The notes beneath the pieces were generated by a model. The model had not been told where the DNA came from, made no database searches, and was given only the letters and a program-made list of their open reading frames with translations. This document shows positions 1 to 30,849 of a DNA stretch of 64,000 nt, piece after piece (the first letter of the stretch is position 1; each line of letters begins with the position of its first letter). The DNA comes from Planctomycetota bacterium (GTDB lineage Bacteria; Planctomycetota; Brocadiia; Brocadiales; Bathyanammoxibiaceae), in NCBI GenBank assembly GCA_016209685.1, contig JACQVQ010000006.1:3184-67183 (forward strand), read 5' to 3'. The translations under genes were made by a program, and so were the position numbers.

Positions 1-1
1 G

Positions 2-295
2 GTGTTCAGCGGGGCCTTGCCATTTTACAACCCCGCGTCTCTGGCGGCAGAGGAGCTAGAAAAGGTTCATATGGACATAGAAGGTATGACCTGCGATGGT
101 TGTGCTGAAGAAATCAAGGCTAAACTGAGTGAACTGCCGGAAGTAGAGGAGGGCACTATCAGCTGGAAGAAGGGCACTGCGGATGTCAAAGTTAATAAAG
201 GTTCAGACCACAAGGCCCTTACTAAAGCCGTTGAAGATGCCGGGTTTAAGGTTACCTCTTTGGAATGTGAGTGCAAGGGCAAAGGCTCGAAGTAA
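2..295 (+). CDS. Heavy-metal-associated (HMA, MerP/CopZ-like) domain protein; 5' end outside the window
   Basis: The ORF is open to the window edge. It has a GMTCDGC metal-binding loop, an HMA-like remainder and a CECKGKGSK tail. It is a paralog of 488..835, and the pre-domain segment PFYNPASLAAEELE matches PFCTPASLAAEELE. Confidence 0.8.
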   Translation: MFSGALPFYNPASLAAEELEKVHMDIEGMTCDGCAEEIKAKLSELPEVEEGTISWKKGTADVKVNKGSDHKALTKAVEDAGFKVTSLECECKGKGSK

Positions 296-318
296 CATAA
301 ATACCTGGGCATGGGTAG

Positions 319-474
319 TCAAAGCTGTCTTGTCCCAGGTACCTTGGAGTAAAAGGGGACAATGTAAACTTGAAGAATGGCACCGCCCTGGTCAAGGTCA
401 AAAAAGGTTCAGCCCGCGGGGCTCTTGCGGCGGTTGTGGAAAACGCCGGTTTTACAGTCACATCTATAAAGTAA
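319..474 (+). pseudogene. Truncated HMA-domain remnant (C-terminal half only)
   Basis: Frame 1 reads ...LGVKGDNVNLKNGTALVKVKKGSARGALAAVVENAGFTVTSIK*, which aligns with the C-terminal half of both flanking HMA proteins. There is no GMTCxxC loop and no start codon, and an in-frame TAG sits at 316..318. Confidence 0.5.
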
Positions 475-487
475 AGGAGAAAGAGAG

Positions 488-835
488 ATGAAAACGGTTG
501 GAAAGGTATTGGTTCTTACCCTTGCAGTGTCACTGGTGGGAATGGTGTCTGGCGGGGTCCTGCCATTTTGCACCCCCGCATCCCTGGCGGCAGAGGAGCT
601 GGAACAGGTCCATATGAAGGTGAACGGTATGACCTGCGGTGCTTGTGCGGCCAAAATCAAGTCTAATCTGACCAAGCTACCTGAGGTAAAAGAGGCCGAC
701 GTAAACTCTAATAAGGGGACTGCAGATATTAGAGTTGCAAAAGGCTCAAACCACATGGCCCTTGCGAAAGCCGTGCAAGATGCAGGTTTTACAGTCTCCT
801 CCGTTGAGTGCGAATGTAATAAGGGCAAGAAATAG
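488..835 (+). CDS. Secreted HMA (MerP/CopZ-like) metal-binding protein
   Basis: The RBS aaaggaga lies upstream of the ATG. The N-terminal hydrophobic signal is VLVLTLAVSLVGMV. It has a GMTCGAC loop and a C-terminal CECNKGKK tail. Confidence 0.85.
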   Translation: MKTVGKVLVLTLAVSLVGMVSGGVLPFCTPASLAAEELEQVHMKVNGMTCGACAAKIKSNLTKLPEVKEADVNSNKGTADIRVAKGSNHMALAKAVQDAGFTVSSVECECNKGKK

Positions 836-840
836 CTTAA

Positions 841-938
841 ATATCCGGGCATGGGTAGCACCTCCAAAAGCACATTGCATCGCCTAACTTGTGGCTAGGC
901 ATGCTATCTTGATATACAGTGTTACCCATGCCTGATAT
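841..938. repeat. Long imperfect nested inverted repeat between the HMA gene and the DUF3179 gene
   Basis: ATATCCGGGCATGGGTA (841..857) pairs with TACCCATGCCTGATAT (923..938). An inner dyad is GCATCGCCTA / TAGGCATGC. The left arm AAATAYCYGGGCATGGGTAG also follows the first HMA gene at 299..318. Confidence 0.4.
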
Positions 939-975
939 TCCACGAGGCAGACTTTGTGAATGGGAGATGTAAAAA

Positions 976-2052
976 ATGCCTTTTGCCGCTGTAACAGTGT
1001 TGCTCACTTGCATCCTCGCATTCCCAGTCTGTTCCCAGGCCATCAGTATTGACCCCAAGGAGATATTATCTGTCGTACCTGAGGATGCCGTAAGGTCTAT
1101 AGACCACCCCAGATTTCTCCAACTGCCTGAGGCAGATGAGCAGATGTCGGATAAGGAGCCTGTCATAGGCATAAAGATAGGCAATGAAGCAAAGGCCTAT
1201 CCTGTTTACCTCCTTAGCGCCCACGAGATAGTCAACGACTCAATTGCTGGTACGGGCGTCGTTGTCACGTGGTGACCCCTCTGCTTTACTGGGGTGGTCT
1301 ACTCCAGAAATATAGACAGCGAAACGCTGGAGTTTGGAGTCTCAGGAAAGCTCTTATGGAATGCACTGCTCATGTTTGACCGCCAGACTCACTCCCTATG
1401 GACTCATATCACAGGGGAGGCCATATCCGGGAAGCTGAAGGGCAAGGCCTTAAAAGAGCTCCCTTCCACCCATACCACCTGGCAGGAGTGGAAAAAGGCG
1501 AACCCCACCACCCTTATATTGTCAAAGGACGATGGCAGTGGGAGGAGATACAATAAAGACCCTTACGAAGCCTATTACCAAGACCCATTAAAGATAGGGC
1601 TGACACCCCAAAAGCATCCGGACGTAAGAATACCCCCAAAGGATCAAGTGGTGGGAATCAAACTAGGAGAAGAGGCCAAAGCCTTTCCCTTTAGATACAT
1701 GGGCAATTTCTCAATAATTAATGACCGCCTTGGTGAGGTGAGAATCGTAGTAATCTACTCCAAAGGAAGAAAGACTGCCATAGTTTTTAATAGGACAGTA
1801 GATGGCAGGGACCTTTCCTTTGAGAAAGCGGAGGATGCTGGGGATTCCTATATGAGAGACAAAGAGACGAACACCCTATGGCTCGTCTTGACAGGTGAGG
1901 CGGTAGAGGGCGGACTCAAGGGCAAAAACCTTCAGCAAATACCCATCATGGTGTCGTTCTGGTTTGCCTGGATTGATTATTTTCCAGAGACAAAGGTCTT
2001 TCAAGACGCAGAACAATCCACACAAGATAACCTCCAAAACCTGGCAAGATGA
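976..2052 (+). CDS. DUF3179 family protein, predicted selenoprotein (in-frame UGA at 1273..1275 read as Sec)
   Basis: ORFs 976..1275 and 1294..2052 are in the same frame with no other stop between them. The joined sequence ...IAGTGVVVTW-U-PLCFTGVVYSRNIDSETLEFGVSGKLLWNALLMFDRQTHSLW puts UGA exactly where DUF3179 proteins carry the first Cys of their conserved CPLC motif. An N-terminal signal peptide is present and a hairpin follows the UGA. Confidence 0.8.
1289..1307 (+). promoter_or_regulatory. Candidate bacterial SECIS hairpin for UGA 1273
   Basis: CUGGGGU-GGUCU-ACUCCAG forms a 7-bp stem with a GGUCU loop, starting 13 nt after the UGA. As recalled, the loop resembles the E. coli fdhF SECIS apical loop. 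Confidence 0.55.
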
Positions 2053-2966
2053 AAGGAGCGGTCAGCGTGGAGCTATATATTAAGGTCCTTTTTGGTCTTT
2101 TTATTGTATTAAGTTGTGATGGAGTTGCCCTTGCTAGTGAGACAAGTTATGAAGAAATGCGTAGATTAACCCTCCTCTCCGACTCTTTGATACAGGAGAT
2201 TGAGGCATTGCGGGCAGAACTCAGGTTAGGAGGTGGGCTCCATCTTGAGACGGAGAGGGCTATTCAGAGTTGGGTTGATTGGGCTAGGTCAAACTTCAAT
2301 GCTGGCAACAAGCGGCTCGACCTATATAAGACCATAGATGTGCTGAGAGATAAGAAGCTGGCCCTAGAAAGGCTTCTTTCGGTACGAAATGGAACCATGG
2401 ACCTATCGGGGTTAATAGTAAGTGAGGAGGATATACTCCCTTATGAAGACCTTCATAACTTGCACATTGTCGATGGCATAATCTTGTCGGGGTCCCAACC
2501 TACAGAAAGCGGTTACAGATACCTCAAGAAAAAAGGTGTTACTACCGTGATAAACTGGCGAAGAGAGGATGACAGTGAGAAAAAAATGGTAACGGATTTA
2601 GGTCTCAAATATTATTATATCCCCATAACACCTGCCCATCCTCCTAGTGAAAAGCAGGTAGGAGAGTTTCTTCTAATAATTGAGGAGGTGCGGAGCAAGG
2701 GTGAAAAGTTGTATCATCACTGCTTGCATGGTGTGGGGAGATGTTTTACAGCGAACGCTGCTTATCTTATTATAAGCAGGGGAATGCCGGCAGAAGAGGC
2801 TATAAGGGAGGGCAAAAACCTGGCCAATTGCTGGCCTATAGAGCAAGAAGAAAAGTTGAAAGAGCAGGGGTTCCATTTGGGAGAATCTGGTTTATATTCC
2901 TTTACCCCCCAATTTGACTTCCTGCGTAACTTTGAGTTGTTGTTGTCTCGCAGAGGACTTCAATAA
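2049..2966 (+). CDS. Secreted or membrane-anchored protein with a C-terminal Cys-X5-Arg (PTP/DSP-fold) phosphatase-like domain
   Basis: The start overlaps the upstream stop (ATGA). The N-terminal hydrophobic segment is VLFGLFIVLSCDGVALA. The P-loop HCLHGVGRC fits the CX5R motif, preceded by GVTTVINWRRE...YYYIPI, typical of the tyrosine-phosphatase-like family. Confidence 0.6.
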   Translation: MKGAVSVELYIKVLFGLFIVLSCDGVALASETSYEEMRRLTLLSDSLIQEIEALRAELRLGGGLHLETERAIQSWVDWARSNFNAGNKRLDLYKTIDVLRDKKLALERLLSVRNGTMDLSGLIVSEEDILPYEDLHNLHIVDGIILSGSQPTESGYRYLKKKGVTTVINWRREDDSEKKMVTDLGLKYYYIPITPAHPPSEKQVGEFLLIIEEVRSKGEKLYHHCLHGVGRCFTANAAYLIISRGMPAEEAIREGKNLANCWPIEQEEKLKEQGFHLGESGLYSFTPQFDFLRNFELLLSRRGLQ

Positions 2967-3011
2967 GATCCTGTAGGTCTGAGTCTTATAAAATTTTTTT
3001 ACTGGCGCGCC

Positions 3012-5480
3012 ATGATATCAAGCCCAATAAAAGAGACCTCCATCCTTTACTCGCCTGATTACCATCGCTACAGCGTTGATAATTTAGCAATTCTACTTGA
3101 CCAGGAAGGCCCTAACTGGATAGGCGCCGATGCCCGTGGGGCAGAGATAATTGGCCTTCTTGATGGTAAAACCCCTTTAGGGGAGGTCGTCAGAACTTAT
3201 TCCTCAAGATACACGATGGAGAGCCCAAAGGCTTGGCTCCACGTCTATTCTTTTATAAGAGATGCCCTCAGACATCAGTTTGTATCTACTCAGCCTTTTC
3301 AAAGGGATAGTTACCCAGGCAGAGGTGCCTTCCTCTCTCTGAACGGGCTAAAAGAATTGTGGATTCATACCAACAACTCATGCAACCTTAGGTGCGCCCA
3401 TTGCCTGGTGGAGTCTTCTTCCTCCGGTGAATATGGGCTTTCTACTAGTGAACTGGCAGAGTTAATCCACCAGGCCAAGTCCCTGGGCGTTTCTCAGTTC
3501 TATTTCACAGGAGGAGAGCCTTTCCTAAGACCGGACCTCTTTCAGCTCTGCTCTTTCGCCATTGCCGGGGGGTCCAATGTAACCATTCTCACTAATGGTA
3601 CATTGATAAACAAAGAGACAGTAAAATGGCTAAATGCCCTTCCCCCAGGCTCAGTCAGGTTGCAGATAAGCCTGGACGGTTCTAAACCAGAGGTCAATGA
3701 CCCTATAAGGGGAAGGGGTAGCTTTGAAAGCATCCTTAGAGGCATCGGGGAGGCAGTACACGCAGGTCTTAGTCCCACTGTGGCTACAGTGCTTCTGCCA
3801 GAAAATTTGCATGACCTGCCAGAACTGCCAAGACTGCTCCACAATCTTGGTGTAACCACACATCACCTCCTTTACCCCCACCGAAGAGGGCGGGCCCTTC
3901 AAGCCCTGGGACAGCCCTCCATTGCGGAGCTGACAGAGGCCATATTTAGGGCAAGGGCGATGGCTTCGGAGTTAGGCCTAAGCATAGACAATTTTTCAGT
4001 CCTGGCTGACCGCCTCCATGCACCAAGATTTACCCAATTTGATTTAAGTACTGCCTGCTGGGATAGTCTCTGCGTCTATTCAAATGGAGAGGTTTATCCC
4101 TCCGCTGTATTCGCCGGCCATAAGGCCCTCTGTTGCGGCAATATAAGAGAGCGTTCGCTAGAGGAAATATGGCGCAGCAGTCCTACCTGTCAACTGGTAC
4201 GTTCTGCCACACTTCAGGATAAGTCCCACTGTCGGGCCTGTACTATTAAGTTCCTCTGTGGCGGTGGGGACATAGAATACGCCTACTTCGCCTCCCAGGC
4301 CAATCTCTTGGGTTTAGACCCTTACTGTGAGCTTTATAAAGAGATAATCTTCTGCCTGCTAAAGGAGTGGGTACAGGAGGCCCAAAGGAATTTAAATAGT
4401 GGTTCAAACCTCGATGCCCCCAGGGTCTATCTTGGTATGGGGGAGGGGGGTTTTTGCTGCCCGGAAGAAGCCACTCAGGCTGACGGGCCCTGGGTAAGGA
4501 CCATCCGCACTAATTGTACGGCCGGGCTGGATCGGGGACTCAAGCGCCAGGGACTACAGCAGTTCTATGCCCAGGCAGCAAAGCAACCTCAACAGGAACT
4601 CTGTTGCCCCTCCGCTTATCCCCCTGAGGAGACCCAACATGTCCCGCAGGAAGCCATAGAGAGGTTCTATGGATGTGGTGGCCCCCTGACCCTGGCGGGG
4701 TTGAGTCCGGGCGAGACCGTGCTTGACCTCGGCTCGGGAGCAGGCATGGATTGCTTTCTGGCCGCAAAAAAGGTGGGCCCTAATGGAAGGGTTTTCGGCC
4801 TGGACATGACGGATACCATGCTCCAGATATCTATGGAATACAAAGGCAAGGTCTCAGACAACTTGGGCTATGATGTAGTAAGGTTTATAAAGGGCTTCTT
4901 GGAGGAAATACCCTTTCGCTCAAGCTCGGCGGACCTGGTGATTTCCAACTGTGTAACAAACCTTTCTGCAGATAAAAGGAAGGTGTTTTCGGAGATATGG
5001 CGAGTGCTGAAAGACCAGGGCCGCTTTGTTATCTCAGACATTGTCTCAGAGACGGAGGTCCCCACCCGTTTTCGCTCCGACAAGCTCCTCTGGGGGCAAT
5101 GTCTGGCAGGGGCCCTTACGGAAGAAGAATTCCTCTGCTATCTTGAACAGGCGGGCTTCCGTGGCATTGAGATATTACATAGGCGCTACTGGAAGACGCT
5201 GGAGGGTTGCAGCTTTTTCTCCATTACCCTTCGTGGGTACAAACTTCAAGGGGCTGAACAGTGCTCCTACGATGGGCATGCGGCCATGTACTGTGGTCCC
5301 TTTAAGGCCGTGCTGGATGAAGAGGGCCACCTCTTCCCAAGGGGGGAAGCCGTTGAGGTGTGTACGGATACCGCAGAAAGACTCCAGAGGCCCCCTTATT
5401 CAAGGGCCTTTGTCATTTGCAGAACTGAACAACCTGAGGGCCCCCCCGCCAATTGTCATTCTCAGGAAAAGTGTTGCTAG
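3012..5480 (+). CDS. Fusion protein: PqqD/RRE-like N-domain + radical SAM core + SPASM domain + ArsM/AS3MT-type SAM-dependent As(III) methyltransferase domain
   Basis: A single 822-aa ORF with these motifs:
- PqqD-like: [34 protein letters not shown].
- Radical SAM: CNLRCAHC.
- SPASM: [14 protein letters not shown] plus a later DPYC.
- ArsM hallmarks: [43 protein letters not shown]. These match the human AS3MT motifs YYGCG, LDLGSGSGRDC, VVSNCVINL and LWGECLGGAL. Confidence 0.85.
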
Positions 5481-5667
5481 GTTTGTCATGGGTATAGTGT
5501 AAGAATGGTAAGGTCCTTTTCGCCAAGGCGGCGCCTATGGCGGTGGCCTGCGCAGGGGGCACGTTGTCCGCCTCAGGTTGAAAATCCGCCATCCCTTCGG
5601 TTTCGCTCAGGACAAGCTTTTGGGCGGGCGGATGCCCCGACACCTTAAAAAGAGAGGAGATATCCAG

Positions 5668-6156
5668 ATGCGCAACCTGTTTTCTGCCCTTTGTGTTTCG
5701 GTCCTTCTTTTATCGCTTTTTCTATCAGCTCCAGTGGAAGGACAAGAGGTTAAGACAATCGGTCTTAAGGAGTTTAATGCCCTTCTGGCAGCCAGCAAGG
5801 GAAAGGTAGTGGTTCTGGACTTCTGGGCTACTTTCTGACCCTCCTGCCGGAGGGCGGTGCCCTTCCTAAACCAGATGTACGAGACGTACAAAGGCCAAGG
5901 TTTTGAAATAATTGCCCTTTCCATAGAGGGAAGTAACGTAGAGGGAGTAAGAGCCTTTTCAAAGAAGGCAGGGATAAAGTATCCCGTCTTTATGGCAGAA
6001 GTAGACCTTCTGGAGAAGTACGGTATCCAGTACATCCCTCACCACGTCTTTATAGACAAGAAGGGGACACAGAGGCACGAAGAGACGGGCTTTTCTGAGG
6101 CAGGCGGGACGGCGTTTGAGACGAGGATTAAGGAGTTACTGAAGGAAGGTGGTTGA
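5668..6156 (+). CDS. Secreted TlpA/ResA-like thioredoxin-fold protein, predicted selenoprotein (UGA 5836..5838 as Sec; U-P-S-C redox motif)
   Basis: The RBS agaggaga lies before the ATG at 5668. The signal peptide is MRNLFSALCVSVLLLSLFLSAPVEG. ORFs 5578..5838 and 5857..6156 share a frame. The joined sequence VVVLDFWATF-U-PSCRRAVPFLNQMY matches the FWATWCPPC region of TlpA-like proteins, with UGA at the first Cys. Confidence 0.8.
5849..5865 (+). promoter_or_regulatory. Candidate SECIS hairpin for UGA 5836
   Basis: GGAGGGC-GGU-GCCCUUC forms a 7-bp stem (one G-U pair) with a GGU loop, starting 10 nt after the UGA. It is identical in the paralog at 9626..9642. Confidence 0.6.
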
Positions 6157-6184
6157 TTTTTTGTATTGTATAGGGAAGGGATAG

Positions 6185-6799
6185 ATGACTCTGGCAAAGA
6201 ACCTCTTAATATTTGTCAAGTATCCCACCCCAGGAAAGGTCAAGACCCGCCTGGGTAGGGCGCTTGGCCCTGAGACAGCGGCCAGTCTCTACCGCAGTAT
6301 GGCAGAGGGTATCATAAAAAGATTGGCCCCGCTAACACGTCACTACTTTGATACCACCATCTTTTATCACCCTCCAGAGAAGGCCTTAGGGTTCAATGCC
6401 TGGTTAGGGCCAGACCTTTCCTACGCCCCCCAACAAGGCAAAGATTTGGGAGAGAGGATGTACAATGCCTTCTTGGCTACCTACCCAAGCCGGACGGTGC
6501 TTATAGGGAGTGATTGTCCGGAAATTACTGTAGAGATAATCCTCCAGGCCTTTCAAGCCCTTGAAAGTTATGATGCAGTCATTGGCCCGGCTATAGACGG
6601 CGGGTATTACCTCATAGGTCTTTCCCATCCTAGGGCTGAGCTATTTCAGGGCGTAGATTGGGGCACCGAAAAGGTCTTTCATCAAACCACCCAAAAGGTG
6701 CAAGCACTTCAACTTTCCTGCCACATTCTACCAACCCTGAGAGATGTAGACGCCCCGGAGGACATTCATGTCTTTTTACCATATCTAACAAGTGGGTGA
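6185..6799 (+). CDS. DUF2064 / TIGR04282-like nucleotidyl- or glycosyltransferase-fold protein (the family annotated as arsenosugar-biosynthesis associated)
   Basis: The N-terminus LLIFVKYPTPGKVKTRLGRALGPETAASLY and the later GSDCPEIT...VIGPAIDGGYYLIGL...VDWGTEKV match my memory of the DUF2064 consensus. Confidence 0.7.
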   Translation: MTLAKNLLIFVKYPTPGKVKTRLGRALGPETAASLYRSMAEGIIKRLAPLTRHYFDTTIFYHPPEKALGFNAWLGPDLSYAPQQGKDLGERMYNAFLATYPSRTVLIGSDCPEITVEIILQAFQALESYDAVIGPAIDGGYYLIGLSHPRAELFQGVDWGTEKVFHQTTQKVQALQLSCHILPTLRDVDAPEDIHVFLPYLTSG

Positions 6800-6897
6800 A
6801 ATTTCAGGCTAACAGGTTTCGAAGGAGTGGGCACGGAAACAGGTGCTATGGGTAGAAATACGCAAAATAGCTTAACATATACAACAATAAGAAACTG

Positions 6898-7728
6898 ATG
6901 TTCACATCTATAAGAATATTTCTAGTTATAACAATACTGCTTCTTTCCCTACCTTCAGAGCAGACATTGGCTCAATACAATGGACGATACGCTTCTAGAT
7001 ATCCTGAAGATTTTTTCAACCCTGGTGGCACAGAGGTAAACTTTAACCCCTCAATACACCAAAAAATAGGCATATTAATACAGAATCGCACTAGACTCTC
7101 GCTTTCTGAGATTGCCCACATGATATTCAAAACCGCCCCCCTTGACCGTTATAAGCGGTTTTTCTACCTTCGTATTGAGGAGGAATTCAGGGAGGATATT
7201 GCAAACAACACTATTCTTTCCACTAGGGCCTATGACTATAGCGGTAGAGCAATACCTAGGGGACTGCCTCTCTCAGAAGGACAGGGCTCTTTCAACCTGG
7301 TCTTTCTCCGGTTCAGTTTGAGGGAGGTGATCCGTTGCAGTTGCAAGGGAGTAACCATTCAAACCAACCAGGGCAATTTCGCCTATGTCGGAGAGGATTC
7401 TATACTGCACGAGGTCGGACACGCTTTTGCAGGGCTTGCTGATGAATACTCCGACCCCCGTGCAAGTGATTTTACTGCGGTAAATCTTGAAGACAGGCAT
7501 GCCCATAAGCTGAAATGGAGTGGACTGATAGAAAAGGGGTTCCTCCCCAATAGAAAGATTGAAAGAAGGGAGATAGTGGGTGGTATAGACAGAGGGAGGT
7601 TCTTGATACCCTCAAACAATTGTTACATGAACAACCATCAAAATGATGACCGCTACTGTCCGGTATGCCAGCTTGCTATAATTAGTAGGATTTCTCAATT
7701 GTCCGGTGTAACTCCTCCATGGCAATAA
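6898..7728 (+). CDS. Secreted HExxH protein with a peptidase M64-like motif
   Basis: The signal peptide is IFLVITILLLSLPSEQTLA. The motif HEVGHAFAGLADEY resembles the HExGHsFggLaDEY signature of M64 (IgA-peptidase-like) proteins. It has a C-terminal CPVCQ. At 276 aa it is shorter than typical M64 enzymes. Confidence 0.5.
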   Translation: MFTSIRIFLVITILLLSLPSEQTLAQYNGRYASRYPEDFFNPGGTEVNFNPSIHQKIGILIQNRTRLSLSEIAHMIFKTAPLDRYKRFFYLRIEEEFREDIANNTILSTRAYDYSGRAIPRGLPLSEGQGSFNLVFLRFSLREVIRCSCKGVTIQTNQGNFAYVGEDSILHEVGHAFAGLADEYSDPRASDFTAVNLEDRHAHKLKWSGLIEKGFLPNRKIERREIVGGIDRGRFLIPSNNCYMNNHQNDDRYCPVCQLAIISRISQLSGVTPPWQ

Positions 7729-7740
7729 GTACTTAGTTTA

Positions 7741-8556
7741 ATGGGAGATATGAGAGTGCACATAAACATCCTTCATTCACTGTTTATCTTTTTAGTATTT
7801 TACTTTTGGTCGTTAACGGCGCCCTGTGAGGGGCAGGAAACAGGTCTCAAAGGAGTGAACATGGATGTTGGATATGAGTTATACGGCCAGGTATTGCAGA
7901 AATACGTGAAAGATGGCACGGTGGCTTATCTGGCCCTAAGGGCTTCTCCCGAAGAACTGGATAAATACCTGTCCTGGTTAGCCCATACAGACCCAGATGC
8001 ACTAGGAACCACCGAGGAAAGACTGTCCTTCTGGATTAACGCCTACAATGCCTTTGTCCTTAAGGGAGTTTTAGACACCCTTCCTGAAAGACCTGCGGAC
8101 ATGGCAGGTTATAGTGTCAAGAAGGTTAAGGGCTTTTTTACTCATAGAAAATTTGTAGTGGGTGGAAGGTCTTATTCACTAGACGATATAGAAAACGATG
8201 TCCTCAGGAGTATGTTTAAAGACCCACGAGTGCACTTTTCCATAGTATGTGCCTCCGAGAGTTGCCCGGTACTGCAAAGCAAGGCCTTCCGTGCTGGGGA
8301 TATCCAAAGCCGTCTAGATGAGGCGACAAAGAGGTTCTTTGCTAGCGAAAACAGATTCAAAATAGACCGCGAAAATAAAGTAGTCTACCTCTCGCCGATA
8401 TTCCGATGGTTTAAGAAAGATTTTGAACAGGCCAAAGGGTCTCTTTACGACTTTATTGCAGACTATCTGGAGAACGAGGAAGACAGGGCCTTCATCAAAA
8501 AGGGAGACTTTACAATAGAGTATCTGGAGTACGACTGGAGCCTGAATATCAGATAG
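7741..8556 (+). CDS. DUF547 domain protein (secreted)
   Basis: FWINAYNAFVL ... VVGGRSYSLDDIENDVLR ... DPRVHFSIVCASESCPVL matches the DUF547 consensus as recalled. An N-terminal hydrophobic signal is present. Confidence 0.75.
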   Translation: MGDMRVHINILHSLFIFLVFYFWSLTAPCEGQETGLKGVNMDVGYELYGQVLQKYVKDGTVAYLALRASPEELDKYLSWLAHTDPDALGTTEERLSFWINAYNAFVLKGVLDTLPERPADMAGYSVKKVKGFFTHRKFVVGGRSYSLDDIENDVLRSMFKDPRVHFSIVCASESCPVLQSKAFRAGDIQSRLDEATKRFFASENRFKIDRENKVVYLSPIFRWFKKDFEQAKGSLYDFIADYLENEEDRAFIKKGDFTIEYLEYDWSLNIR

Positions 8557-8681
8557 AGACACCAGAAGAGATGCAGACAATTAAAATTATATTACTATGT
8601 ACTGCCCACTCTACTAGACTGAAGAAGTCCCTGAGGACCTATATGCCCTCTGGCCCGATACGATAAAGGAGCTAGATTTAC

Positions 8682-9383
8682 GTGGCTAAAGATAATGCCG
8701 CTTCTCGGATACCAAAGGTCTCCATAATCATTCCTACATTACAGGAAGAAAATACAATAGAAAAGACACTCCTCAACCTAAGGAAGCAGGGGAATAGCCA
8801 TGAGGTCACTGTTGTGGATGGCGGCAGCACTGACTCTACCGTGGATATAGCCAGCCGTTATGCCAGGGTGATTAAAGGGCCGCCGGGTCGGGCCAGGCAG
8901 ATGAACCTGGGGGCCAGCCACGCCAGGGGAAAGATATTATTATTTCTCCATGCCGATACCATACTGCCTGAGGGGGCTGTAGACAAGGTTTGTAAAGCAA
9001 TCCAGCGGCCGGGGATAGTCGGTGGCTGTTTCAGCCTGGCATTTGACCCCCCTCACTCATTCCTTTGTTTCATTAGCCTCTTTACACACCTGCACTGGTG
9101 GTGGGTTCCATATGGAGACCAGGCATTCTTTGCTACTGCTGAGGCCTTTAACACCCTAGGGGGCTACCGGGACCTGGCAATAATGGAAGATATGGAGTTC
9201 TTCAAGAGACTTAAGAATTTAGGTAAGGTGTGTATTATCCAAGACCCAGTTATAACCTCCTCCAGGAGATTCTTAAAAAAGGGTGTATATAGACAGACTC
9301 TTCTTAACCTACTAATTTATTTAGGTTATTTATGCGGGCTAAAAGCGGATAGGTTCAAAAAGTGGTACGGAACTGTTAGATAA
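8682..9383 (+). CDS. Family-2 glycosyltransferase, TIGR04283-like (the family annotated as arsenosugar-biosynthesis associated)
   Basis: GTG start. Motifs VSIIIPTLQEENTI, VTVVDGGSTDSTV, GRARQMNLGA, LLFLHADTILP, YGDQAFF and IMEDMEF fit the GT2 / TIGR04283 pattern as recalled. Confidence 0.7.
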   Translation: MAKDNAASRIPKVSIIIPTLQEENTIEKTLLNLRKQGNSHEVTVVDGGSTDSTVDIASRYARVIKGPPGRARQMNLGASHARGKILLFLHADTILPEGAVDKVCKAIQRPGIVGGCFSLAFDPPHSFLCFISLFTHLHWWWVPYGDQAFFATAEAFNTLGGYRDLAIMEDMEFFKRLKNLGKVCIIQDPVITSSRRFLKKGVYRQTLLNLLIYLGYLCGLKADRFKKWYGTVR

Positions 9384-9444
9384 AAGCCTATGCTACGGCA
9401 GACTTAAACTTTTTGCTTTTTTAACTCCAGAAAGGAGGCTCAAA

Positions 9445-9927
9445 ATGCGCCACTTGCCTTCTGTCGTTTGGGTTCCGATACTTTTTTTCTTGCTTTCTCT
9501 GTTAGCTCAAGTAGAGGGGCAAGAAGTTAAGACTATAAACCTTAGGGCCTTAAACGACCTGCTGGGGGACAGACAAGGTAAAGTAGTGGTACTGGACTTC
9601 TGGTTCACTCGCTGACCCCACTGCCGGAGGGCGGTGCCCTTCCTTAACCAGATGTACGATACTTACAAAAACCAGGGCCTTGAGCTAATTGGACTTTCTA
9701 TAGATGAAGATGTAGAGGCCGTTAGGAGCTTTTTAAAAAAGGTGGAGATAAAGTACCCCGTCGTCGTTGCAGATCTGGACATTTCAGAGGAGTATGGAAT
9801 ACAGTTTGTACCGCATCATGTTTTTATAGATAGACAAGGCAAAAAGAGGGCTGAGGAGACAGGTTTTTCTGAGGAGGGGAAGGTAGAGTTCGAAACAAAG
9901 GTAAGGGAGTTACTAAAGGAAAGGTAA
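9445..9927 (+). CDS. Second secreted TlpA-like thioredoxin-fold selenoprotein (UGA 9613..9615 as Sec; U-P-H-C)
   Basis: The RBS aaaggagg lies before the ATG at 9445. I translated 9445..9612 by hand and found no stops: MRHLPSVVWVPILFFLLSLLAQVEGQEVKTINLRALNDLLGDRQGKVVVLDFWFTR. This is followed by UGA and then PHCRRAVPFLNQMY... in frame with ORF 9634..9927. It is a paralog of 5668..6156. Confidence 0.8.
9626..9642 (+). promoter_or_regulatory. Candidate SECIS hairpin for UGA 9613
   Basis: The same 17-nt hairpin, GGAGGGCGGUGCCCUUC, as at 5849..5865. It starts 10 nt after the UGA. Confidence 0.6.
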
Positions 9928-9974
9928 TCTTTCTGTAGAGTAAAAATGGGCGGTTATAATTAAACCTTCAGCTC

Positions 9975-10187
9975 TTGTTGCTAATGAGCTTTTCTCGGCC
10001 TTTGAAAGTTTGTGAGACTCACGAAGCTGATAAAGAGACGGGAACACTTTGGTTAGCCTTGGCCAGTGAAGCAATGGAGGGTAAGCTTGCAGCTAATGTC
10101 CTACGGCAAATACCCAGCATGATGGCCTTTTGGTTTGCCTGGGCGGATTATTTTCCAGAGACAAAGGTCTTTCAAGACGGAGGATAG
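9975..10187 (+). pseudogene. C-terminal fragment of a second DUF3179 gene
   Basis: DKETGTLWLALASEAMEGKLAANVLRQIPSMMAFWFAWADYFPETKVFQDGG aligns with the last ~55 residues of 976..2052 (DKETNTLWLVLTGEAVEGGLKGKNLQQIPIMVSFWFAWIDYFPETKVFQD). The upstream ~280 residues of the domain are absent. Confidence 0.6.
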
Positions 10188-10479
10188 AGTCTAAAACGTT
10201 TTCTGCCGAGGCTTAGGCTATTCTTGCCGAGAAGGCCTCCTTATCTTGTGGCTTTTAAACTCTTCCAAGTGCCTTCTACCGCAAAAGCCACTATTGAGTC
10301 CTTTACAGCACGAGGAGGCATCCCTTCGGCACATCTCGTCCACAAATCACGAGTAATGCACCCAGGGCTCACTCCCACTACTGTAACTTTTTATTATTTT
10401 GGAGCTTAAAACGGTTTCTTTACCGCTTGAACATGGAAACATAATGTGCTACTTTAACCTCGGAAAAGGGAGACTTCAA

Positions 10480-11889
10480 ATGTCATGTACCACAAAGTTG
10501 GTGTCGGCTTCACCCGCCATTAAAAAGATTATAATACCTTTGGCAGTATTTGGCATCGCTATCCTTGTATTGGATTTTTCATGGCCTGTTTTGGCTGCCG
10601 AAGATGTCGGGGCGATAAAAGAAAAGGCCAAATTCACTACTATTATGGACAAGTATGGGCTACCGCTTGCCATACTGTTTTCCTTCTGGTGGGGATTGCT
10701 TGCCAATATAGGCTCAGCCTGCATCTATCCCATGGTGCCTATTACTATCGGCTACTTTGCCAGTCAGGCAGAGACCCACGGGAAGGGATATACGGTGCTC
10801 CTCGCCTGGATGTTCGTCCTGGGGATAGCAACCCTTTACGCCCCTCTGGGGGTGCTTTCTGCCCTGGCAGGGAGGGATGTGGGTGCCTTACTGGGGAATC
10901 CCTTCTTCATCGGACCCTTTGTGGCCTTTCTCGTGGCCATGGCCCTCAGTATGTTCGGGCTATTTGAGATAAGGCTACCCGTCTTTCTTATGGACCGCTT
11001 CCATTCAGGGGGAAAGAAGACGGGAATTATTGGCACCTTTCTTATGGGCATGATCCTGGGTTTTGTGGCGGCGCCTTGTGTGGGTCCCTTTGCGGGTTCT
11101 ATCCTGGCCTTCGTGGCCACCACAGGTAATATCTTTGTGGGCCTGGCCAGTCTGTTCTTTTTTTCCCTGGGGCTGGGTATGCCTTATCTAGTGCTAGCTA
11201 TATCAGCCAAGAGCCTTGCCAGCCTGCCCAAGGCCGGGGAGTGGATAAACCGCATCAAACAATTTGCTGGGCTTGTACTCCTGCTGGTGGCCGTTTACTT
11301 CTTGAGCTTCATCATCCCCAAAGACGTTTCCTTCTTGCTGGCAGGAACGCTGGTACTTTTTATGGGTGTGTTTCTTGGCACACTGTCCTGGAGGGAGGCA
11401 TCTACTCCGGCCCTCTTCGGAAGAGGTGTTGGAATCCTGATAGGGGTTTGTGGTATTATGTTGTTCCTGCTCGGGCTACTGGGCCTCACGGGGCTATCGG
11501 GAAAATTGCCCATGACCCAGGCCCCGGGTGTACGAGCGGAGATTAAATGGGTGCCCTCCTTTGAGGAGGGTATGCGACTGGCAGGGGAGCAGGGCAGGCC
11601 AGTGTTTATAGACTTCTTTGCGGATTGGTGCCTCCCCTGCAAGGAGATGGAGGCCAATACCTGGAGGGACGAACGGGTCATAAAGGAATCGGAAAGGTTC
11701 GTTGCCATTAAAATGGACTCCTCCAAAGATGACAGTCCCGGCTCAAGGCTTAAGATAGAAAAATTCAATTCTTTTTATATACCCTACGTAGCCTTCTACG
11801 ACGCTAAAGGGAGCTATCTTGAGGGTAGGTCCATAGAAGGTTACGCAGACGCCGATACAATGCTTAAAGTAATGCAGACAATCCATTAA
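10480..11889 (+). CDS. DsbD-like thiol:disulfide electron conduit (CcdA-type membrane domain + C-terminal thioredoxin domain)
   Basis: The multi-TM core carries the two conserved Cys motifs (ACIYPMVP and APCVGPF). The C-terminal Trx domain has FADWCLPC. I prefer the ATG at 10480 (RBS aagggaga) over the maximal ORF start at 10399. No DsbD-alpha domain is visible. Confidence 0.8.
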   Translation: MSCTTKLVSASPAIKKIIIPLAVFGIAILVLDFSWPVLAAEDVGAIKEKAKFTTIMDKYGLPLAILFSFWWGLLANIGSACIYPMVPITIGYFASQAETHGKGYTVLLAWMFVLGIATLYAPLGVLSALAGRDVGALLGNPFFIGPFVAFLVAMALSMFGLFEIRLPVFLMDRFHSGGKKTGIIGTFLMGMILGFVAAPCVGPFAGSILAFVATTGNIFVGLASLFFFSLGLGMPYLVLAISAKSLASLPKAGEWINRIKQFAGLVLLLVAVYFLSFIIPKDVSFLLAGTLVLFMGVFLGTLSWREASTPALFGRGVGILIGVCGIMLFLLGLLGLTGLSGKLPMTQAPGVRAEIKWVPSFEEGMRLAGEQGRPVFIDFFADWCLPCKEMEANTWRDERVIKESERFVAIKMDSSKDDSPGSRLKIEKFNSFYIPYVAFYDAKGSYLEGRSIEGYADADTMLKVMQTIH

Positions 11890-11890
11890 C

Positions 11891-11982
11891 AAGGTTACAG
11901 GGAACGGGGCACAGGATACAGGGAAAAAGATTTTTACCTGTTCCCTGTTCTCTGTTCCCTGCTTCCTGTTTCCTGTTACCTT
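11891..11982. repeat. Tandem-unit hairpin (ACAGGRA units / complementary TCCTGTT units)
   Basis: AAGGTTACAGG...ACAGGATACAGGGAAAAAGATTTTTACCTGTTCCCTGTTCTCTGTTCCCTG...CCTGTTACCTT. The outer ends are complementary. It lies directly after the DsbD-like stop codon. Confidence 0.75.
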
Positions 11983-11999
11983 AAATTAAGGAGGGGAAG

Positions 12000-12326
12000 A
12001 TGGCCGAAATATTAGGGGTTACCGACGCTAACTTTAAGACAGAGGTTCTAGAGTCTCCCTCACCGGTGCTTGTAGATTTCTGGGCCACCTGGTGCGCCCC
12101 CTGCAAGCAGATGGCCGAGATACTTGATGGCCTGGTGCCGATATATAAGGGCAAGGTAAAGATGGTCAAGCTCAACGTGGATGAGGGGACCAAGGTCGCC
12201 GCCCAGTACGGCATAACGGCCATCCCCACCCTGATATTCTTTAAGGGAGGCAAGGAGGCCGGGCGGATGGTAGGCGTAGTCTCCAGGCAGAAGCTGGAGG
12301 AGAAACTCAAAGGGCTTGCTGGCTAA
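12000..12326 (+). CDS. trxA: Thioredoxin
   Basis: 108 aa. VLVDFWATWCAPCK active site, PTLIFFKGG, typical length, RBS aaggagggg. Confidence 0.9.
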   Translation: MAEILGVTDANFKTEVLESPSPVLVDFWATWCAPCKQMAEILDGLVPIYKGKVKMVKLNVDEGTKVAAQYGITAIPTLIFFKGGKEAGRMVGVVSRQKLEEKLKGLAG

Positions 12327-12955
12327 TGAAAAACTGCATTGCAAATTGTAAATTGCAGATTTTAAATTTCAAATTTTCAATTTGCATTTTACAATTAATT
12401 GTTTTCCTGGGCCTCCCTTCCCAGGCCCAGGCGGTGTGGAAGGAACTGACCCCCAAGCAATTCCTGGAGGCCATGGAATACGGTCAGAAAGAAAAAGACA
12501 AGGCTATGGTGGACTTTGCCAGGGAATGGACGGTGAACCTCGGGGAGCAGGTAGGCTGGGCCACGCTTTACACCCCGTTTCACAGCCTGGCCTACAAGGC
12601 CCGCAAGGCGGCCGTAGAGCACCGCGAATTAACGGAAAAGGAGATTAAGAAGGCCCTGGGGGACGGAGAGACGCTGACCTTCTCGGCCACTATCCTGTGC
12701 GATGCCCTTTACTACACACGCCAAAGACCGTCCACCCTGCATCAGGGAGAAAAGGTTGTGGCCTCCTCTTATGAGTTCCTCCCCGACGTCTGCGAGAACA
12801 GCAACTTTTTCCCGGAGTCCCCGGCCTACATGGCCTCTTGTGTGTATAGGTTCCCCCACAAAGACCTCTCTCTGGAAGCCCCCATAACCCTGGTGATAAT
12901 TACGCCTACTGGAGAGGAACGCCTCTTCCCCTTTGACCTGTCCGGGATACGCTAA
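12326..12955 (+). CDS. Hypothetical secreted protein
   Basis: A long ORF with coding-like composition. The signal-like segment ILQLIVFLGLPSQAQA is partly encoded by the hairpin repeat. The start is uncertain (ATG 12326 or TTG 12353). I recognised no family. Confidence 0.5.
   Translation: MKNCIANCKLQILNFKFSICILQLIVFLGLPSQAQAVWKELTPKQFLEAMEYGQKEKDKAMVDFAREWTVNLGEQVGWATLYTPFHSLAYKARKAAVEHRELTEKEIKKALGDGETLTFSATILCDALYYTRQRPSTLHQGEKVVASSYEFLPDVCENSNFFPESPAYMASCVYRFPHKDLSLEAPITLVIITPTGEERLFPFDLSGIR
12334..12396. repeat. Tandem-unit hairpin (TTGCAAA/TTGTAAA units)
   Basis: GCATTGCAAATTGTAAATTGCAGATTTTAAATTTCAAATTTTCAATTTGCATTTTACAATT. It lies just after the trxA stop and overlaps the 5' end of ORF 12326. 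Confidence 0.7.
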
Positions 12956-12983: not shown

Positions 12984-13466
12984 CTAGCAAGAGGCCCCCT
13001 TCGCCTCCCTCTCCTTCTTTACCGCCTCTATACACTCCTTAACGAATTGATCCGCATTCGTATTGTGCATCAGGCAGGCAAAGGCGACGTCCTCCGTACC
13101 AAAGGCAGGACAGGTAAAACAACCCACCCCAAAATACTTTGCAAAAACAGTCTTGGCCGCAGGGTATCTGTCCGTAACCTCGGAGGTCTTCATCTTCTTA
13201 GTAATCACAATCTCCCCTGTGTCGGCCGTGGCGTGTCCGCATGAGGCGGATTGTGGTGCCTGACAGACGGCCTGTAAGTCCTGGATAAGTTTCCCCACGT
13301 CCGCCCCCTGCTGGGCACAGACGGCCCCAAGGGTAGTGTCATCGTTGGTGCCGGGCTTCTGAAGCCTGGCCATCAGGGCAAAAAACCCGTTCCGCTTAAA
13401 GACCATAACCGCCCCCGGGTGCGCTGAGATTATCTCAGAGACCTTGCTGTCTTTGGTAACGTTCAT
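12984..13466 (-). CDS. DUF1858-type (hybrid-cluster-protein-associated redox disulfide) tandem-domain protein
   Basis: The second half, TSEVTDRYPAAKTVFAKYFGVGCFTCPAFGTEDVAFACLMHNTNADQFV, fits the DUF1858 pattern with its CxxC. The first half, VSEIISAHPGAVMVFKRNGF..., is a degenerate copy without CxxC. Confidence 0.55.
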   Translation of the reverse strand: MNVTKDSKVSEIISAHPGAVMVFKRNGFFALMARLQKPGTNDDTTLGAVCAQQGADVGKLIQDLQAVCQAPQSASCGHATADTGEIVITKKMKTSEVTDRYPAAKTVFAKYFGVGCFTCPAFGTEDVAFACLMHNTNADQFVKECIEAVKKEREAKGASC

Positions 13467-13797: not shown

Positions 13798-14091
13798 TGC
13801 CCTGGTCCGCCCCCGCACCAACATGTCCTAAGCAATGGAAACCAAAGGGCTTACGAAGCACAACAAATCCCCTTTTCCCTAACAAGTATCACTTGCTTTT
13901 ATTATGTAAACCAGTATAATAGATTTGTTAAATTTTTCCTCACCGGCCGCACGGCAAGACGTGTTTCGTTGGCTAACAGGTCCTGGGGAAAGGAGGCACT
14001 AAACAAGGTGACGGGGCCATGCCCGACAAAGGTTTCTGTGCCTGCCCTTAAAAAAGATACTCAATCCGCTTTTGTAAAGGTACAAGTGGCC

Positions 14092-14106
14092 TCCGCCTCA
14101 GGCGGA
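14092..14106. repeat. TCCGCC-N3-GGCGGA palindrome
   Basis: TCCGCCTCAGGCGGA, 12 nt upstream of the glnA start. Confidence 0.8.
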
Positions 14107-14117
14107 CTATCTAAGAC

Positions 14118-15530: not shown

Positions 15531-15590
15531 GCCGACAAGAATTTTTTTCAGCCGGGGCGCTCCATTGAACGCCCTACGTAAAAAAGAAGT

Positions 15591-19368: not shown

Positions 19369-19378
19369 GGGTTTAGAC

Positions 19379-20710: not shown

Positions 20711-20981
20711 TACTTTGTTCTTTCTCTGTTGCTTTTCTGTTCTTTCTCTGTCTCCTTTTTTTCTCCCTCTTCTCTCTTTTGTCTCTTTAGGATGTCTTGT
20801 AGCTAGCGGAGGAGCACCTTCTGCCGTTTTTCTAACACACTCTTTCCATTATTAACTCAATAGTTGCACGTGACTTGGGACAAAAACGAAACAAGATTTC
20901 AACATCCCTGGGCTGCCTTAGGGTTAAGAATTAGGTAAAAAGAAACCAAAACTAAATATAAGAAGAGAGAGGATAACAACC
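20711..20981. other. dnaA-dnaN intergenic region; candidate oriC or part of it
   Basis: This is the only sizeable non-coding DNA adjacent to dnaA, since the upstream gene abuts dnaA. It contains a pyrimidine tract and an A+T-rich 3' part (aagaattaggtaaaaagaaaccaaaactaaatataagaag). I could not confirm consensus DnaA boxes by eye. Confidence 0.3.
20713..20788. repeat. Strand-asymmetric polypyrimidine tract with an internal 13-nt direct repeat
   Basis: By hand count, the 76 nt on the + strand contain 70 C/T, 6 G and 0 A. GTTCTTTCTCTGT occurs at 20717..20729 and 20739..20751. Confidence 0.85.
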
Positions 20982-22088: not shown

Positions 22089-27420
<5,332 letters not shown>

Positions 27421-27434
27421 GGGAGGGCCTGACA

Positions 27435-30770: not shown

Positions 30771-30777
30771 AGTCGTT

Positions 30778-30842: not shown

Positions 30843-30849
30843 TTTCTTC

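Follow-up and report, generated by a model that had tools for sequence, protein, structure and literature searches.

Arsenosugar biosynthesis has been characterised through its ArsM and ArsS steps (PMC8552651, in a cyanobacterium; PMC13598754). In Synechocystis, SsArsS works together with SsArsM (PMC8552651), and ArsS adenosylates trivalent dimethylarsenic, DMAs(III), to 5'-deoxy-5'-dimethylarsinoyl-adenosine (PMC13598754); we found no literature account of the arsenosugar steps after ArsS. In the arsinothricin pathway, ArsL, a non-canonical enzyme of the radical S-adenosylmethionine (SAM) type, transfers a 3-amino-3-carboxypropyl group (bioRxiv 10.1101/2024.02.01.577332). Selenocysteine (Sec) forms of DUF3179 and TlpA-like proteins, on the other side of the present story, have already been listed as predicted prokaryotic selenoprotein families (PMC9312934, PMC13188914). 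Here we describe a stretch of 64,000 nucleotides (the window) from a Planctomycetota bacterium of the class Brocadiia (contig JACQVQ010000006.1), whose first 13 kb hold a gene block that combines a radical SAM/SPASM enzyme fused to an ArsM-type As(III) methyltransferase with accessory genes of the arsenosugar cassette and three predicted selenoprotein genes.

The first-pass annotation of this DNA had listed 14 genes, and all of them were recovered at 1-12955, on the + strand and in the proposed order, by open reading frame (ORF) calls together with Pfam and NCBIfam matches (Table 1). The intergenic gaps range from overlap to about 210 nt; no terminator-like site was seen in the + strand intergenic spaces, and promoter and terminator scans were uninformative. 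Export of the encoded proteins was judged solely from N-terminal hydrophobic leaders.

The fusion protein was analysed using Pfam, NCBIfam and PDB matches and an AlphaFold2 (AF2) model searched with Foldseek. Its approximate domain limits are residues 1-90 for a domain resembling PqqD and the recognition element (RRE) of enzymes acting on ribosomally synthesized and post-translationally modified peptides (RiPPs), 113-300 for the radical SAM core, 340-445 for SPASM and 505-805 for the ArsM As(III) methyltransferase, after which comes a flexible Cys-rich tail ending in CC. The radical SAM and SPASM parts are recognized by PF04055 (90 bits) and PF13186 (36.4 bits against a gathering score of 21.5), and the CxxxCxxC motif is present. 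The C-terminal half aligns with crystallised ArsM (4fr0/4kw7, E = 6e-44) over the YGCG, SNCV and GxCLxGA cysteines, and it contains both the Rossmann SAM motif and the As(III)-binding cysteines known from CmArsM (Cys72, Cys174, Cys224 and an N-terminal Cys). In the AF2 model (mean predicted local distance difference test score, pLDDT, 80), a beta3-alpha3 N-domain of RRE/PqqD fold, a radical SAM/SPASM body and an ArsM body are followed by a disordered Cys-rich tail, and for the C-terminal half Foldseek returns ArsM and AS3MT, with 32-33% identity and E-values as low as 3e-24 (6cx6).

Conserved residues were taken from an alignment of 27 fusion homologues with 47-78% identity. The radical SAM cysteines (C124xxxC128xxC131), the SPASM residue C354, the ArsM cysteines C531/C532, C555, C647 and C697, and the terminal pair C821-C822 are invariant, and the SPASM cysteines C407, C410 and C416 are kept in at least 90% of the sequences. 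As read from the sequence, the fourth Cys position of the SPASM motif CX2CX5CX3C is an invariant Asp (D420). The invariant Cys-Cys terminus lies on the disordered tail (residues 807-822).

We found more than 120 full-length homologues of the fusion at 43-52% identity, which are annotated only generically, and at least 508 metagenomic stretches that encode relatives. The clades include Brocadiales/Scalindua, Dadabacteria, Thermodesulfobacteriota, Nitrospirota, Nitrospinota, Zixibacteria, Omnitrophica and Latescibacteria (at least eight phyla). By its sequence record, this arrangement represents a large, widespread and unstudied family, and the fusion reaches the cut-off of no NCBIfam model. The first-pass annotation had regarded the system as an undescribed variant, and we likewise found no paper on the fusion or on its link with TIGR04282 and TIGR04283, an absence of evidence within an incomplete coverage of the literature; the selenoprotein families themselves, as noted above, are already listed.

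The gene neighbourhoods were described from 90 fusion loci (median flank about 4 kb), to which tblastn and de novo clustering were applied. In the 84 loci with a clustered fusion ORF, the neighbours are TIGR04282/TIGR04283 (45 loci), a PiT-type phosphate transporter (27), DUF547 (22), the MerA-like FAD oxidoreductase NF004991 (21), an MptA_B-like GT-C glycosyltransferase (19), DedA-like (13), DUF3179 (12), TlpA-like (10), PstB (10), CcdA/DsbD (8), ArsR (5) and ArsC of the low-molecular-weight protein tyrosine phosphatase type (4). Nearly all of these neighbours share the strand of the fusion. By tblastn, TIGR04282 stands beside the fusion in 35 of the 90 loci and TIGR04283 in 23; since TIGR04282 has about 3000 matches among 5.8 billion clusters, the 35 co-occurrences are not due to chance. 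ArsS adjoins the fusion in none of the 90 loci.

A genuine ArsS cassette from another metagenome (locus L097) provides the point of comparison. It contains an ArsM-like methyltransferase, PiT, ArsS (TIGR04167, 416 bits), NF004991, GT-C, a family-2 glycosyltransferase (GT2) and TIGR04282, with Redoxin and thioredoxin genes nearby. PiT (in loci L013, L014, L017 and L055, for example) and NF004991 thus flank ArsS as well as the fusion, and neither is present in the window. NF004991 and TlpA occur together in none of the 84 loci against about 2.4 expected, a difference that is not significant. Because the accessory gene set of ArsS recurs around the fusion and ArsS never adjoins it, we interpret the family as a non-orthologous displacement: the fused SPASM-type enzyme has probably taken the place of ArsM plus ArsS in an arsenosugar-type pathway, and an exported thiol/selenol module has joined it in this lineage (a probability of roughly 60%). 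In agreement with the first-pass annotation, canonical ArsS is absent both from the locus and from the whole window, and a different radical SAM enzyme, of SPASM type, is fused to ArsM; where ArsS is defined by a TIGR04167 score of at least 300 bits and a C-terminal DUF3641 domain, the fusion has SPASM instead. The two transferase genes were likewise correctly foreseen as TIGR04282 and TIGR04283, both scoring above the curated cut-offs; the source names of these families are 'rSAM/selenodomain-associated transferase 1' and 'arsenosugar biosynthesis glycosyltransferase'. DUF547 and DUF3179 also fall into their expected Pfam families by a wide margin (Table 1).

The block had further been proposed to form one co-conserved locus. 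This holds for the core genes, which are linked to the fusion across phyla and match the ArsS accessory set, and fails for the 13-kb block as a whole. In the two closest relatives the gene orders are Sec-DUF3179, phosphatase, fusion, TIGR04282, TIGR04283, DUF547 (L099) and Sec-DUF3179, Sec-TlpA, phosphatase, fusion, TIGR04282, HExxH, DUF547, amylase, TIGR04283 (L011), the fusions of the two being 76-79% identical to that of the window; the DsbD, TrxA and heavy-metal-associated (HMA) genes do not take part in this conservation. Since gene sets differ in this way between the window, these two loci and the wider clades, the block is composed of three layers: a core (fusion, TIGR04282, TIGR04283, DUF547), a semi-conserved periplasmic layer (DUF3179, TlpA, CcdA/DsbD) and a lineage-specific layer (the phosphatase, conserved within the lineage, two HMA proteins, the HExxH protein, TrxA and a 209-residue protein).

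Three genes of the block, encoding DUF3179 and two TlpA-like proteins, are interrupted by an in-frame stop codon, in each case a TGA that stands where a U-P-x-C motif begins, and the coding sequence is conserved on both sides. The corresponding position in DUF3179 is an invariant Cys in 39 full-length homologues, and beside the fusion it is Cys in 11 of 13 DUF3179 and 11 of 13 TlpA proteins. The TGA recurs in DUF3179 of three other loci (L011, L056 and L099; 55-57% identity) and in TlpA-like proteins of two loci (32-40%); L011 has it in both families, and altogether L011, L028, L056 and L099 retain it. Each TGA is followed by a small hairpin resembling a selenocysteine insertion sequence (SECIS). 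For DUF3179, the consensus over three orthologues includes three pairs changed on both sides, and the single-sequence fold agrees. Orthologues have such hairpins at +13 to +35 with GGU, GUG or GUU loops and few compensatory changes among the 3-4 sequences available; no Rfam family matches them. By these signs, namely Cys-aligned and recurring TGAs with hairpins, the three TGAs behave as Sec codons, as the first-pass annotation had supposed for three exported U-P-x-C selenoproteins. Its further idea, a shift of the selenium dependence from ArsS to these proteins, is a conjecture. All three genes are split or missed by gene callers in both NCBI assemblies, and about 20 of the 120 best DUF3179 matches are C-terminal pieces of 214-255 residues, which is what gene callers yield from Sec forms. 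No further selenoprotein candidate with an in-frame TGA was seen in the window.

The two Sec-TlpA genes share 76% of their nucleotides over 265 nt (5663-5927 and 9440-9704), and the ~45 nt around the TGA and the hairpin are almost identical. Two short-read assemblies (L009 and L010) break at window position 5844, just past the first of these TGAs. Directly after Sec-TlpA #2 lies a C-terminal remnant of DUF3179 with 87% nucleotide and 70% amino acid identity to 1929-2011 of the intact gene, which suggests that a DUF3179/TlpA unit was once duplicated. Together with the remnant of a third HMA gene and the 62%-identical TlpA paralogues, it argues for recent duplication and decay in the block. The structure of DUF3179 was modelled for a Cys homologue of 57% identity (P0241, pLDDT 88). 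The model is all-beta and consists of two halves, and its only likeness in PDB is a domain-level one to the Rieske fold; on this model DUF3179 is not a thioredoxin-fold protein, and one may speculate that the invariant H83...C100-P-L-C103 forms a Rieske-like metal or metalloid site. By sequence search, neither DUF3179 nor DUF547 has a match in PDB. A natural TlpA-DUF3179 fusion (P0283) ties these two families together.

The last part of the block contains genes for a thioredoxin (TrxA) and for a membrane protein that had been described as a DsbD-like conduit. The transmembrane and C-terminal thioredoxin domains of the latter bear out this description, and the N-terminal DsbD-alpha domain is missing: the match to DsbD (NF001419) begins at model position 162 and reaches 251.8 bits against a cut-off of 330. 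TlpA and/or CcdA adjoin the fusion in at least four clades whose fusions have no more than 56% mutual identity. A Dadabacteria-like clade repeatedly shows the fusion, TIGR04282, TlpA and CcdA in this order, and TlpA is also found near the fusion in Scalindua and others. It is plausible that Sec-TlpA, Sec-DUF3179, DsbD and TrxA represent a partly co-conserved add-on to the cassette.

A possible course of the pathway can be outlined from these assignments. In this cytoplasmic enzyme, the ArsM domain would bind As(III) on its conserved cysteines and methylate it with SAM, up to dimethylarsenite. The radical SAM/SPASM domain would then make the next As-C bond, most likely with the 5'-deoxyadenosyl group of a second SAM, as ArsS does. 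The fusion may serve to pass a toxic and oxidation-prone trivalent intermediate from site to site, and one could speculate that carrier and docking functions are provided by the Cys-rich tail and possibly also by the RRE-like N-domain. Judging from family membership, TIGR04282 (nucleotidyl-/glycosyl-transferase fold), TIGR04283 (GT2) and DUF547 are candidates for the later steps to a sugar- or lipid-linked arsenical. In a Zixibacteria contig, a gene of the purine/uridine nucleoside phosphorylase family (L014, 8054-8665) is situated two genes upstream of the fusion and is a candidate for the removal of adenine from an adenosyl-arsenical.

TrxA would re-reduce the ArsM cysteines, a role that the MerA-like FAD oxidoreductase may have in other lineages. 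By analogy with the transfer from DsbD/CcdA to TlpA, ResA or CcmG, electrons would also pass from TrxA to the DsbD-like membrane protein, on to its periplasmic thioredoxin domain and from there to the two Sec-TlpA proteins. These would keep Sec-DUF3179 reduced and, more speculatively, would also reduce the exported Cys-X5-Arg protein acting as a periplasmic arsenate reductase. The MerP-like HMA proteins would bind soft metal or metalloid ions; binding of As(III) by the HMA and DUF3179 proteins is a speculative extension.

Several observations weigh against the displacement of ArsM and ArsS as described here. The fusion family is known from genes alone, and we infer every chemical step. The ArsM domain scores below the curated cut-offs (NF008823, 234.2 against 263 bits; the arsenosugar ArsM model NF038099, 137.7 against 400), its second-best NCBIfam model being the arsinothricin ArsM (217 bits against 500). 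For the N-terminal half, the 25 best NCBIfam families each reach 64.6 bits or more, and TIGR04167 is not one of them; the likeness to a genuine ArsS is confined to 153 residues of the radical SAM core, with 25% identity. The modelled likeness of this half to RRE-bearing peptide maturases makes a peptide or protein substrate possible. About half of the fusion loci lack TIGR04282, TIGR04283 and DUF547 in the DNA at hand. With regard to the exported module, the closest relatives (L011 and L099) have no adjoining DsbD, TrxA, HMA or 209-residue protein, TlpA and CcdA occur in only ~10% of fusion loci, the hairpins are small with weak single-sequence z-scores (-0.6 to -1.9), and the window contains neither sel genes nor tRNA-Sec among its larger ORFs and ARAGORN predictions.

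The block could instead consist of independent modules that happen to be juxtaposed: a cassette for organoarsenicals at 976-9383, a periplasmic reducing pathway of general function, and Hg/Cu-type HMA binders under an extracytoplasmic function (ECF) sigma factor. The TlpA, DsbD-like and TrxA proteins would then serve cytochrome c maturation or envelope redox homeostasis in a planctomycete rich in cytochromes, and the selenoproteins would be Sec variants of housekeeping oxidoreductases. DsbD or CcdA with TlpA or ResA is a standard route of cytochrome c biogenesis, which fits this explanation, as do the two relatives without DsbD, TrxA and HMA genes and the rarity of these families beside the fusion (HMA in 1-4 and HExxH in 2 loci, in addition to the low share of TlpA and CcdA). 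Sec-TlpA-like and Sec-DUF3179 proteins are moreover known from many genomes (PMC9312934, PMC13188914). The gene order speaks for a closer connection, however: TlpA #1 separates the fusion from TIGR04282, TlpA #2 follows TIGR04283, and the genes of the block, spaced by short gaps, all share the same strand, with no terminator-like site found between them. Sec-DUF3179 is located directly upstream of the phosphatase and fusion genes in three relatives, DUF3179 is present in 12-13 loci, the arrangement of the Dadabacteria-like clade includes both TlpA and CcdA, and a Redoxin and a thioredoxin gene stand near the ArsS cassette of L097 as well. We regard mere juxtaposition as improbable.

A departure of similar, low likelihood accepts arsenic as the substrate and alters the chemistry. 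The fusion would form an As-C bond unlike that of ArsS, with another alkyl donor or with protein-bound arsenic on its own tail, and would underlie a widespread anaerobic pathway to an undescribed organoarsenical, present in anammox relatives, Dadabacteria, Nitrospirota and others. TrxA/DsbD-fed Sec-TlpA and Sec-DUF3179 would extend this pathway into the periplasm, driving the phosphatase-fold arsenate reductase or processing the exported product.

Another explanation holds that the fusion is a peptide- or protein-modifying maturase of RiPP type, in which the RRE-like domain binds a peptide that the SPASM part cross-links or modifies in another way; the methyltransferase, GT2 and HExxH proteins would tailor the product in a mycofactocin-like manner, and arsenic would not be a substrate or would only be attached to the peptide. 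The N-terminal half provides the arguments. Its best NCBIfam model is the mycofactocin maturase MftC (144.5 bits, cut-off 265), followed by sactipeptide and other peptide maturases. The N-domain has the beta3-alpha3 RRE fold in the AF2 model (pLDDT ~90), and among the Foldseek matches of this half, SkfB, SuiB and TigE, all RRE-bearing maturases, extend over 400-526 columns; anSME and PqqE are matched as well. There is also a weak PqqD match in Pfam at the N-terminus, one homologue is named 'PqqD family peptide modification chaperone' by NCBI, and TIGR04283 is an 'MftF-like' GT2. On the other hand, no small ORF that could encode a precursor peptide is common to more than two of the 90 loci. The N-domain is highly conserved, with D30, P34, N35, W36, G43 and Y63 invariant, unlike RREs that track variable leader peptides. 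A search of 1.84 billion proteins with this domain alone yields 104 representatives. In nearly all of them the matching part is their own N-terminus (~100 residues), and their lengths vary from short fragments to full-length proteins of ~820-850 residues, so that these matches were taken as the same family; the domain thus finds only its own family. All arsenic-binding cysteines of ArsM are invariant, and the neighbours comprise PiT, PstB, ArsR, ArsC and the accessory set of a real ArsS locus. A RiPP-type maturase therefore appears clearly unlikely to us.

Still less probable, and in our opinion very unlikely, is a cassette for selenium or some other soft metalloid, in which the ArsM-like domain methylates Se, the radical SAM domain forms a C-Se bond to a selenosugar-like product, and the selenoproteins and HMA proteins handle Se and metal trafficking. 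The cassette was first defined by its (seleno)protein link ('rSAM/selenodomain-associated'), the locus has three selenoproteins, and arsenic as the substrate of the fusion is likewise deduced from sequence. Yet the cysteine set is that of the crystallised As(III) methyltransferases, phosphate/arsenate transporters (PiT in 27 loci, PstB in 10), ArsR (5) and ArsC (4) recur as neighbours, and ArsS, the displaced enzyme, has a proven arsenic substrate (PMC13598754). Finally, we reject the view that the three TGAs are inactivating mutations or sequencing errors in DUF3179 and TlpA pseudogenes: despite the split gene calls, the genuinely decayed HMA and DUF3179 copies nearby and the lack of Sec machinery in the window, every stop is a TGA that replaces the invariant Cys of the redox motif, lies in an intact and conserved frame ahead of a hairpin, recurs in four other loci and is found in sequence that two Logan assemblies reproduce without a difference and two NCBI metagenome-assembled genomes (MAGs) with 99.8% identity.

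The remaining genes of the block mostly belong to its lineage-specific layer. The phosphatase-fold protein is DUSP23-like in PDB, and in L011 and L099 its gene has kept its position immediately next to the fusion, on the upstream side. HMA1 starts 56 nt before the window, with its first 19 codons upstream, and the full 116-residue form with its leader is present in L007; HMA2 is 59% identical to it. A third HMA copy was detected as a repeat whose frame-2 translation resembles the HMA C-terminus. The HExxH protein had been called M64-like, which is a weak assignment: it matches an M64-like structure (PDB 3p1v, E = 4e-4, residues 168-263), but its score against Peptidase M64 (PF09471) remains below the gathering score, the match covering the HExxH segment alone. 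The 209-residue protein at the end of the block has no Pfam or NCBIfam match and no homologue in the 90 fusion loci.

Table 1. Genes, gene remnants and predicted recoding hairpins of the block at window positions 1-12955
Feature	Position	Strand	Description
HMA1	1-295	+	exported MerP/CopZ-like heavy-metal-binding protein; GMTCDGC, C-terminal ECEC; PF00403, 46.5 bits
Decayed third HMA copy	316-468	+	C-terminal two thirds kept; no CxxC, no start codon
HMA2	488-835	+	exported heavy-metal-binding protein; GMTCGAC, C-terminal ECEC; PF00403, 50.3 bits
Sec-DUF3179 (predicted)	976-2052	+	exported; TGA 1273-1275, U at codon 100, W-U-P-L-C; PF11376, 315.7 bits across the stop (gathering 27), positions 2-292 of 292
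SECIS-like hairpin, DUF3179	1289-1307	+	16 nt past TGA; loop GGUCU
Phosphatase-fold protein	2049-2966	+	exported atypical dual-specificity (Cys-X5-Arg) type; HCLHGVGR; PF22785 (56 bits), PF22741, PF00782
Radical SAM/SPASM/ArsM fusion	3012-5480	+	822 aa
Sec-TlpA #1 (predicted)	5668-6156	+	exported thioredoxin-fold oxidoreductase; TGA 5836-5838, F-U-P-S-C; Redoxin/AhpC-TSA across the stop; ResA-like, 86.7 bits
SECIS-like hairpin, TlpA #1	5849-5865	+	13 nt past TGA; 7 bp, loop GGU; consensus over 4 sequences
TIGR04282 transferase	6185-6799	+	DUF2064, CofC-like; 206.3 bits, cut-off 134; model 1-189 of 189
HExxH protein	6898-7728	+	exported, weakly M64-like; PF09471, 22.5 bits, cut-off 26
DUF547 protein	7741-8556	+	N-terminal leader; PF04784, 92.3 bits, gathering 27
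TIGR04283 family-2 glycosyltransferase	8682-9383	+	242.2 bits, cut-off 182; model 1-221 of 221
Sec-TlpA #2 (predicted)	9445-9927	+	TGA 9613-9615, R-U-P-H-C; paralogue of #1, 62% amino acid identity
SECIS-like hairpin, TlpA #2	9626-9642	+	loop GGU
DUF3179 C-terminal remnant	9975-10187	+	last ~50 codons; PF11376 245-292, 35.5 bits
DsbD-like conduit	10399-11889	+	DsbD/CcdA transmembrane domain PF02683, 149 bits; C-terminal thioredoxin PF13899, 54 bits, WCLPC; start codon uncertain
TrxA	12000-12326	+	cytoplasmic thioredoxin, WCAPC; TIGR01068, 113.7 bits, cut-off 96.8
209-aa protein	12326-12955	+	exported, family unassigned; start overlaps trxA stop; last gene of block

Two NCBI MAGs (GCA_052360985.1 and GCA_052361005.1) and two Logan assemblies have contigs that match the window at 99.8-100% identity, and the only named close homologue belongs to Candidatus Hypogeohydataceae (Planctomycetota, class Brocadiia), a family described from subsurface aquifers (bioRxiv 10.1101/2023.04.27.538623). 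Upstream of HMA1, in L007 (1-3050), are genes for a cytochrome P460, an ECF sigma factor and a zf-HC2 anti-sigma factor. In a distant genome (L015, 7809-9955), a sigma/anti-sigma pair of this type immediately precedes DUF547 and the fusion, and such pairs recur in a few other fusion loci; the pair may be the regulator of the cassette. At its other end, the block faces a convergent gene at 12984-13466 (- strand) for a small redox protein with a DUF1858/hybrid-cluster-protein-associated redox disulfide domain, which marks the border of the locus.

Among the larger ORFs, the rest of the window is made up of housekeeping genes, including glnA, glnD, a nifS-like gene, dnaA, dnaN, gyrBA, rseP, dxr and ispG, as well as trkHA, ruvCAB, queH, tgt, secDF, lpxDI and groEL. 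The genes dnaA, dnaN, gyrB and gyrA are located at 19361-27420, downstream of the locus, which presumably places the arsenic cassette, ~6.5 kb from dnaA, near the replication origin. Outside the block, no ars genes were seen in the window, and a scan of the whole window at Rfam gathering thresholds gave no RNA families. The G+C content is 0.45-0.53 at 1-12000 and 0.55-0.59 in the housekeeping region at 14000-32000; since other stretches of the window are equally low, horizontal transfer is not clearly indicated by this. At 51136-52335 (+ strand), among lipid A genes, there is a second radical SAM/SPASM gene, which is unfused and unrelated to the arsenic cassette; the same pairing is seen in the relative L099 (12324-13559, - strand). 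A multihaem c-type cytochrome gene at 33382-34833 (+ strand) has a weak match to the ExtKL (seleno)protein family (63 bits against a cut-off of 250), with no in-frame TGA seen in it.

If the displacement of ArsM and ArsS is correct, the family would represent a second radical SAM solution, not homologous to the first and fused to ArsM, that is common in anaerobic and subsurface lineages and works with the same uncharacterised accessory genes. The lineages that have the fusion include anammox-related Brocadiia, Dadabacteria, Nitrospirota and Thermodesulfobacteriota. Anoxic aquifers and sediments may produce more organoarsenicals than has been estimated. The fusion offers a compact, single-polypeptide target for reconstituting As-C bond formation. 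Its neighbours, namely TIGR04282, TIGR04283, DUF547, GT-C, PiT and the MerA-like oxidoreductase, form a candidate list for the missing later steps, and the locus gives the orphan Sec-DUF3179 and Sec-TlpA-like families their first genomic context and hence a testable function.

Among the described systems, the ArsM/ArsS cassette shares with the locus an As(III) methyltransferase beside a radical SAM enzyme and the presence of both TIGR04282 and TIGR04283 above their cut-offs; across fusion loci, the DUF547, PiT, NF004991, GT-C and Redoxin neighbours are shared as well. In contrast to that cassette, the present locus has no ArsS. Its radical SAM part belongs to the SPASM branch, carries an RRE-like N-domain, lacks the Cys/Sec-rich DUF3641 domain and is covalently fused to ArsM, and Sec is found in the exported partners rather than in the radical SAM enzyme. 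The arsinothricin pathway similarly pairs a C-As bond-forming radical SAM enzyme, ArsL, with an ArsM methyltransferase, but ArsL is not of SPASM type, is unfused and has no TIGR04282 or TIGR04283 partners. The RRE-bearing SPASM/twitch maturases (MftC, SkfB, SuiB, CteB, PqqE) have the same order of RRE-like, radical SAM and SPASM domains and are the best sequence and fold matches for the N-terminal half of the fusion. It differs from them in its fused ArsM, its arsenic/phosphate neighbourhood, scores far below the cut-offs and the lack of a precursor peptide gene among the loci searched.

The redox genes resemble the pathway from DsbD/CcdA to TlpA, ResA or CcmG in comprising TrxA, a DsbD-type transmembrane protein with a C-terminal thioredoxin domain, and exported TlpA-like proteins. 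Unlike in that pathway, the first Cys of the CxxC motif is replaced by a predicted Sec in both TlpA proteins, DsbD-alpha is absent, and the genes are set in an organoarsenical cassette instead of a ccm or res operon. The selenoproteins themselves correspond in family and Sec position to entries listed as 'DUF3179 domain-containing protein (UxxC/T)' and 'thiol-disulfide isomerase-like protein (UxxC, cd02966)'; whereas those lists (PMC9312934, PMC13188914) give neither function nor genomic partner, both families are linked here to a radical SAM-ArsM fusion.

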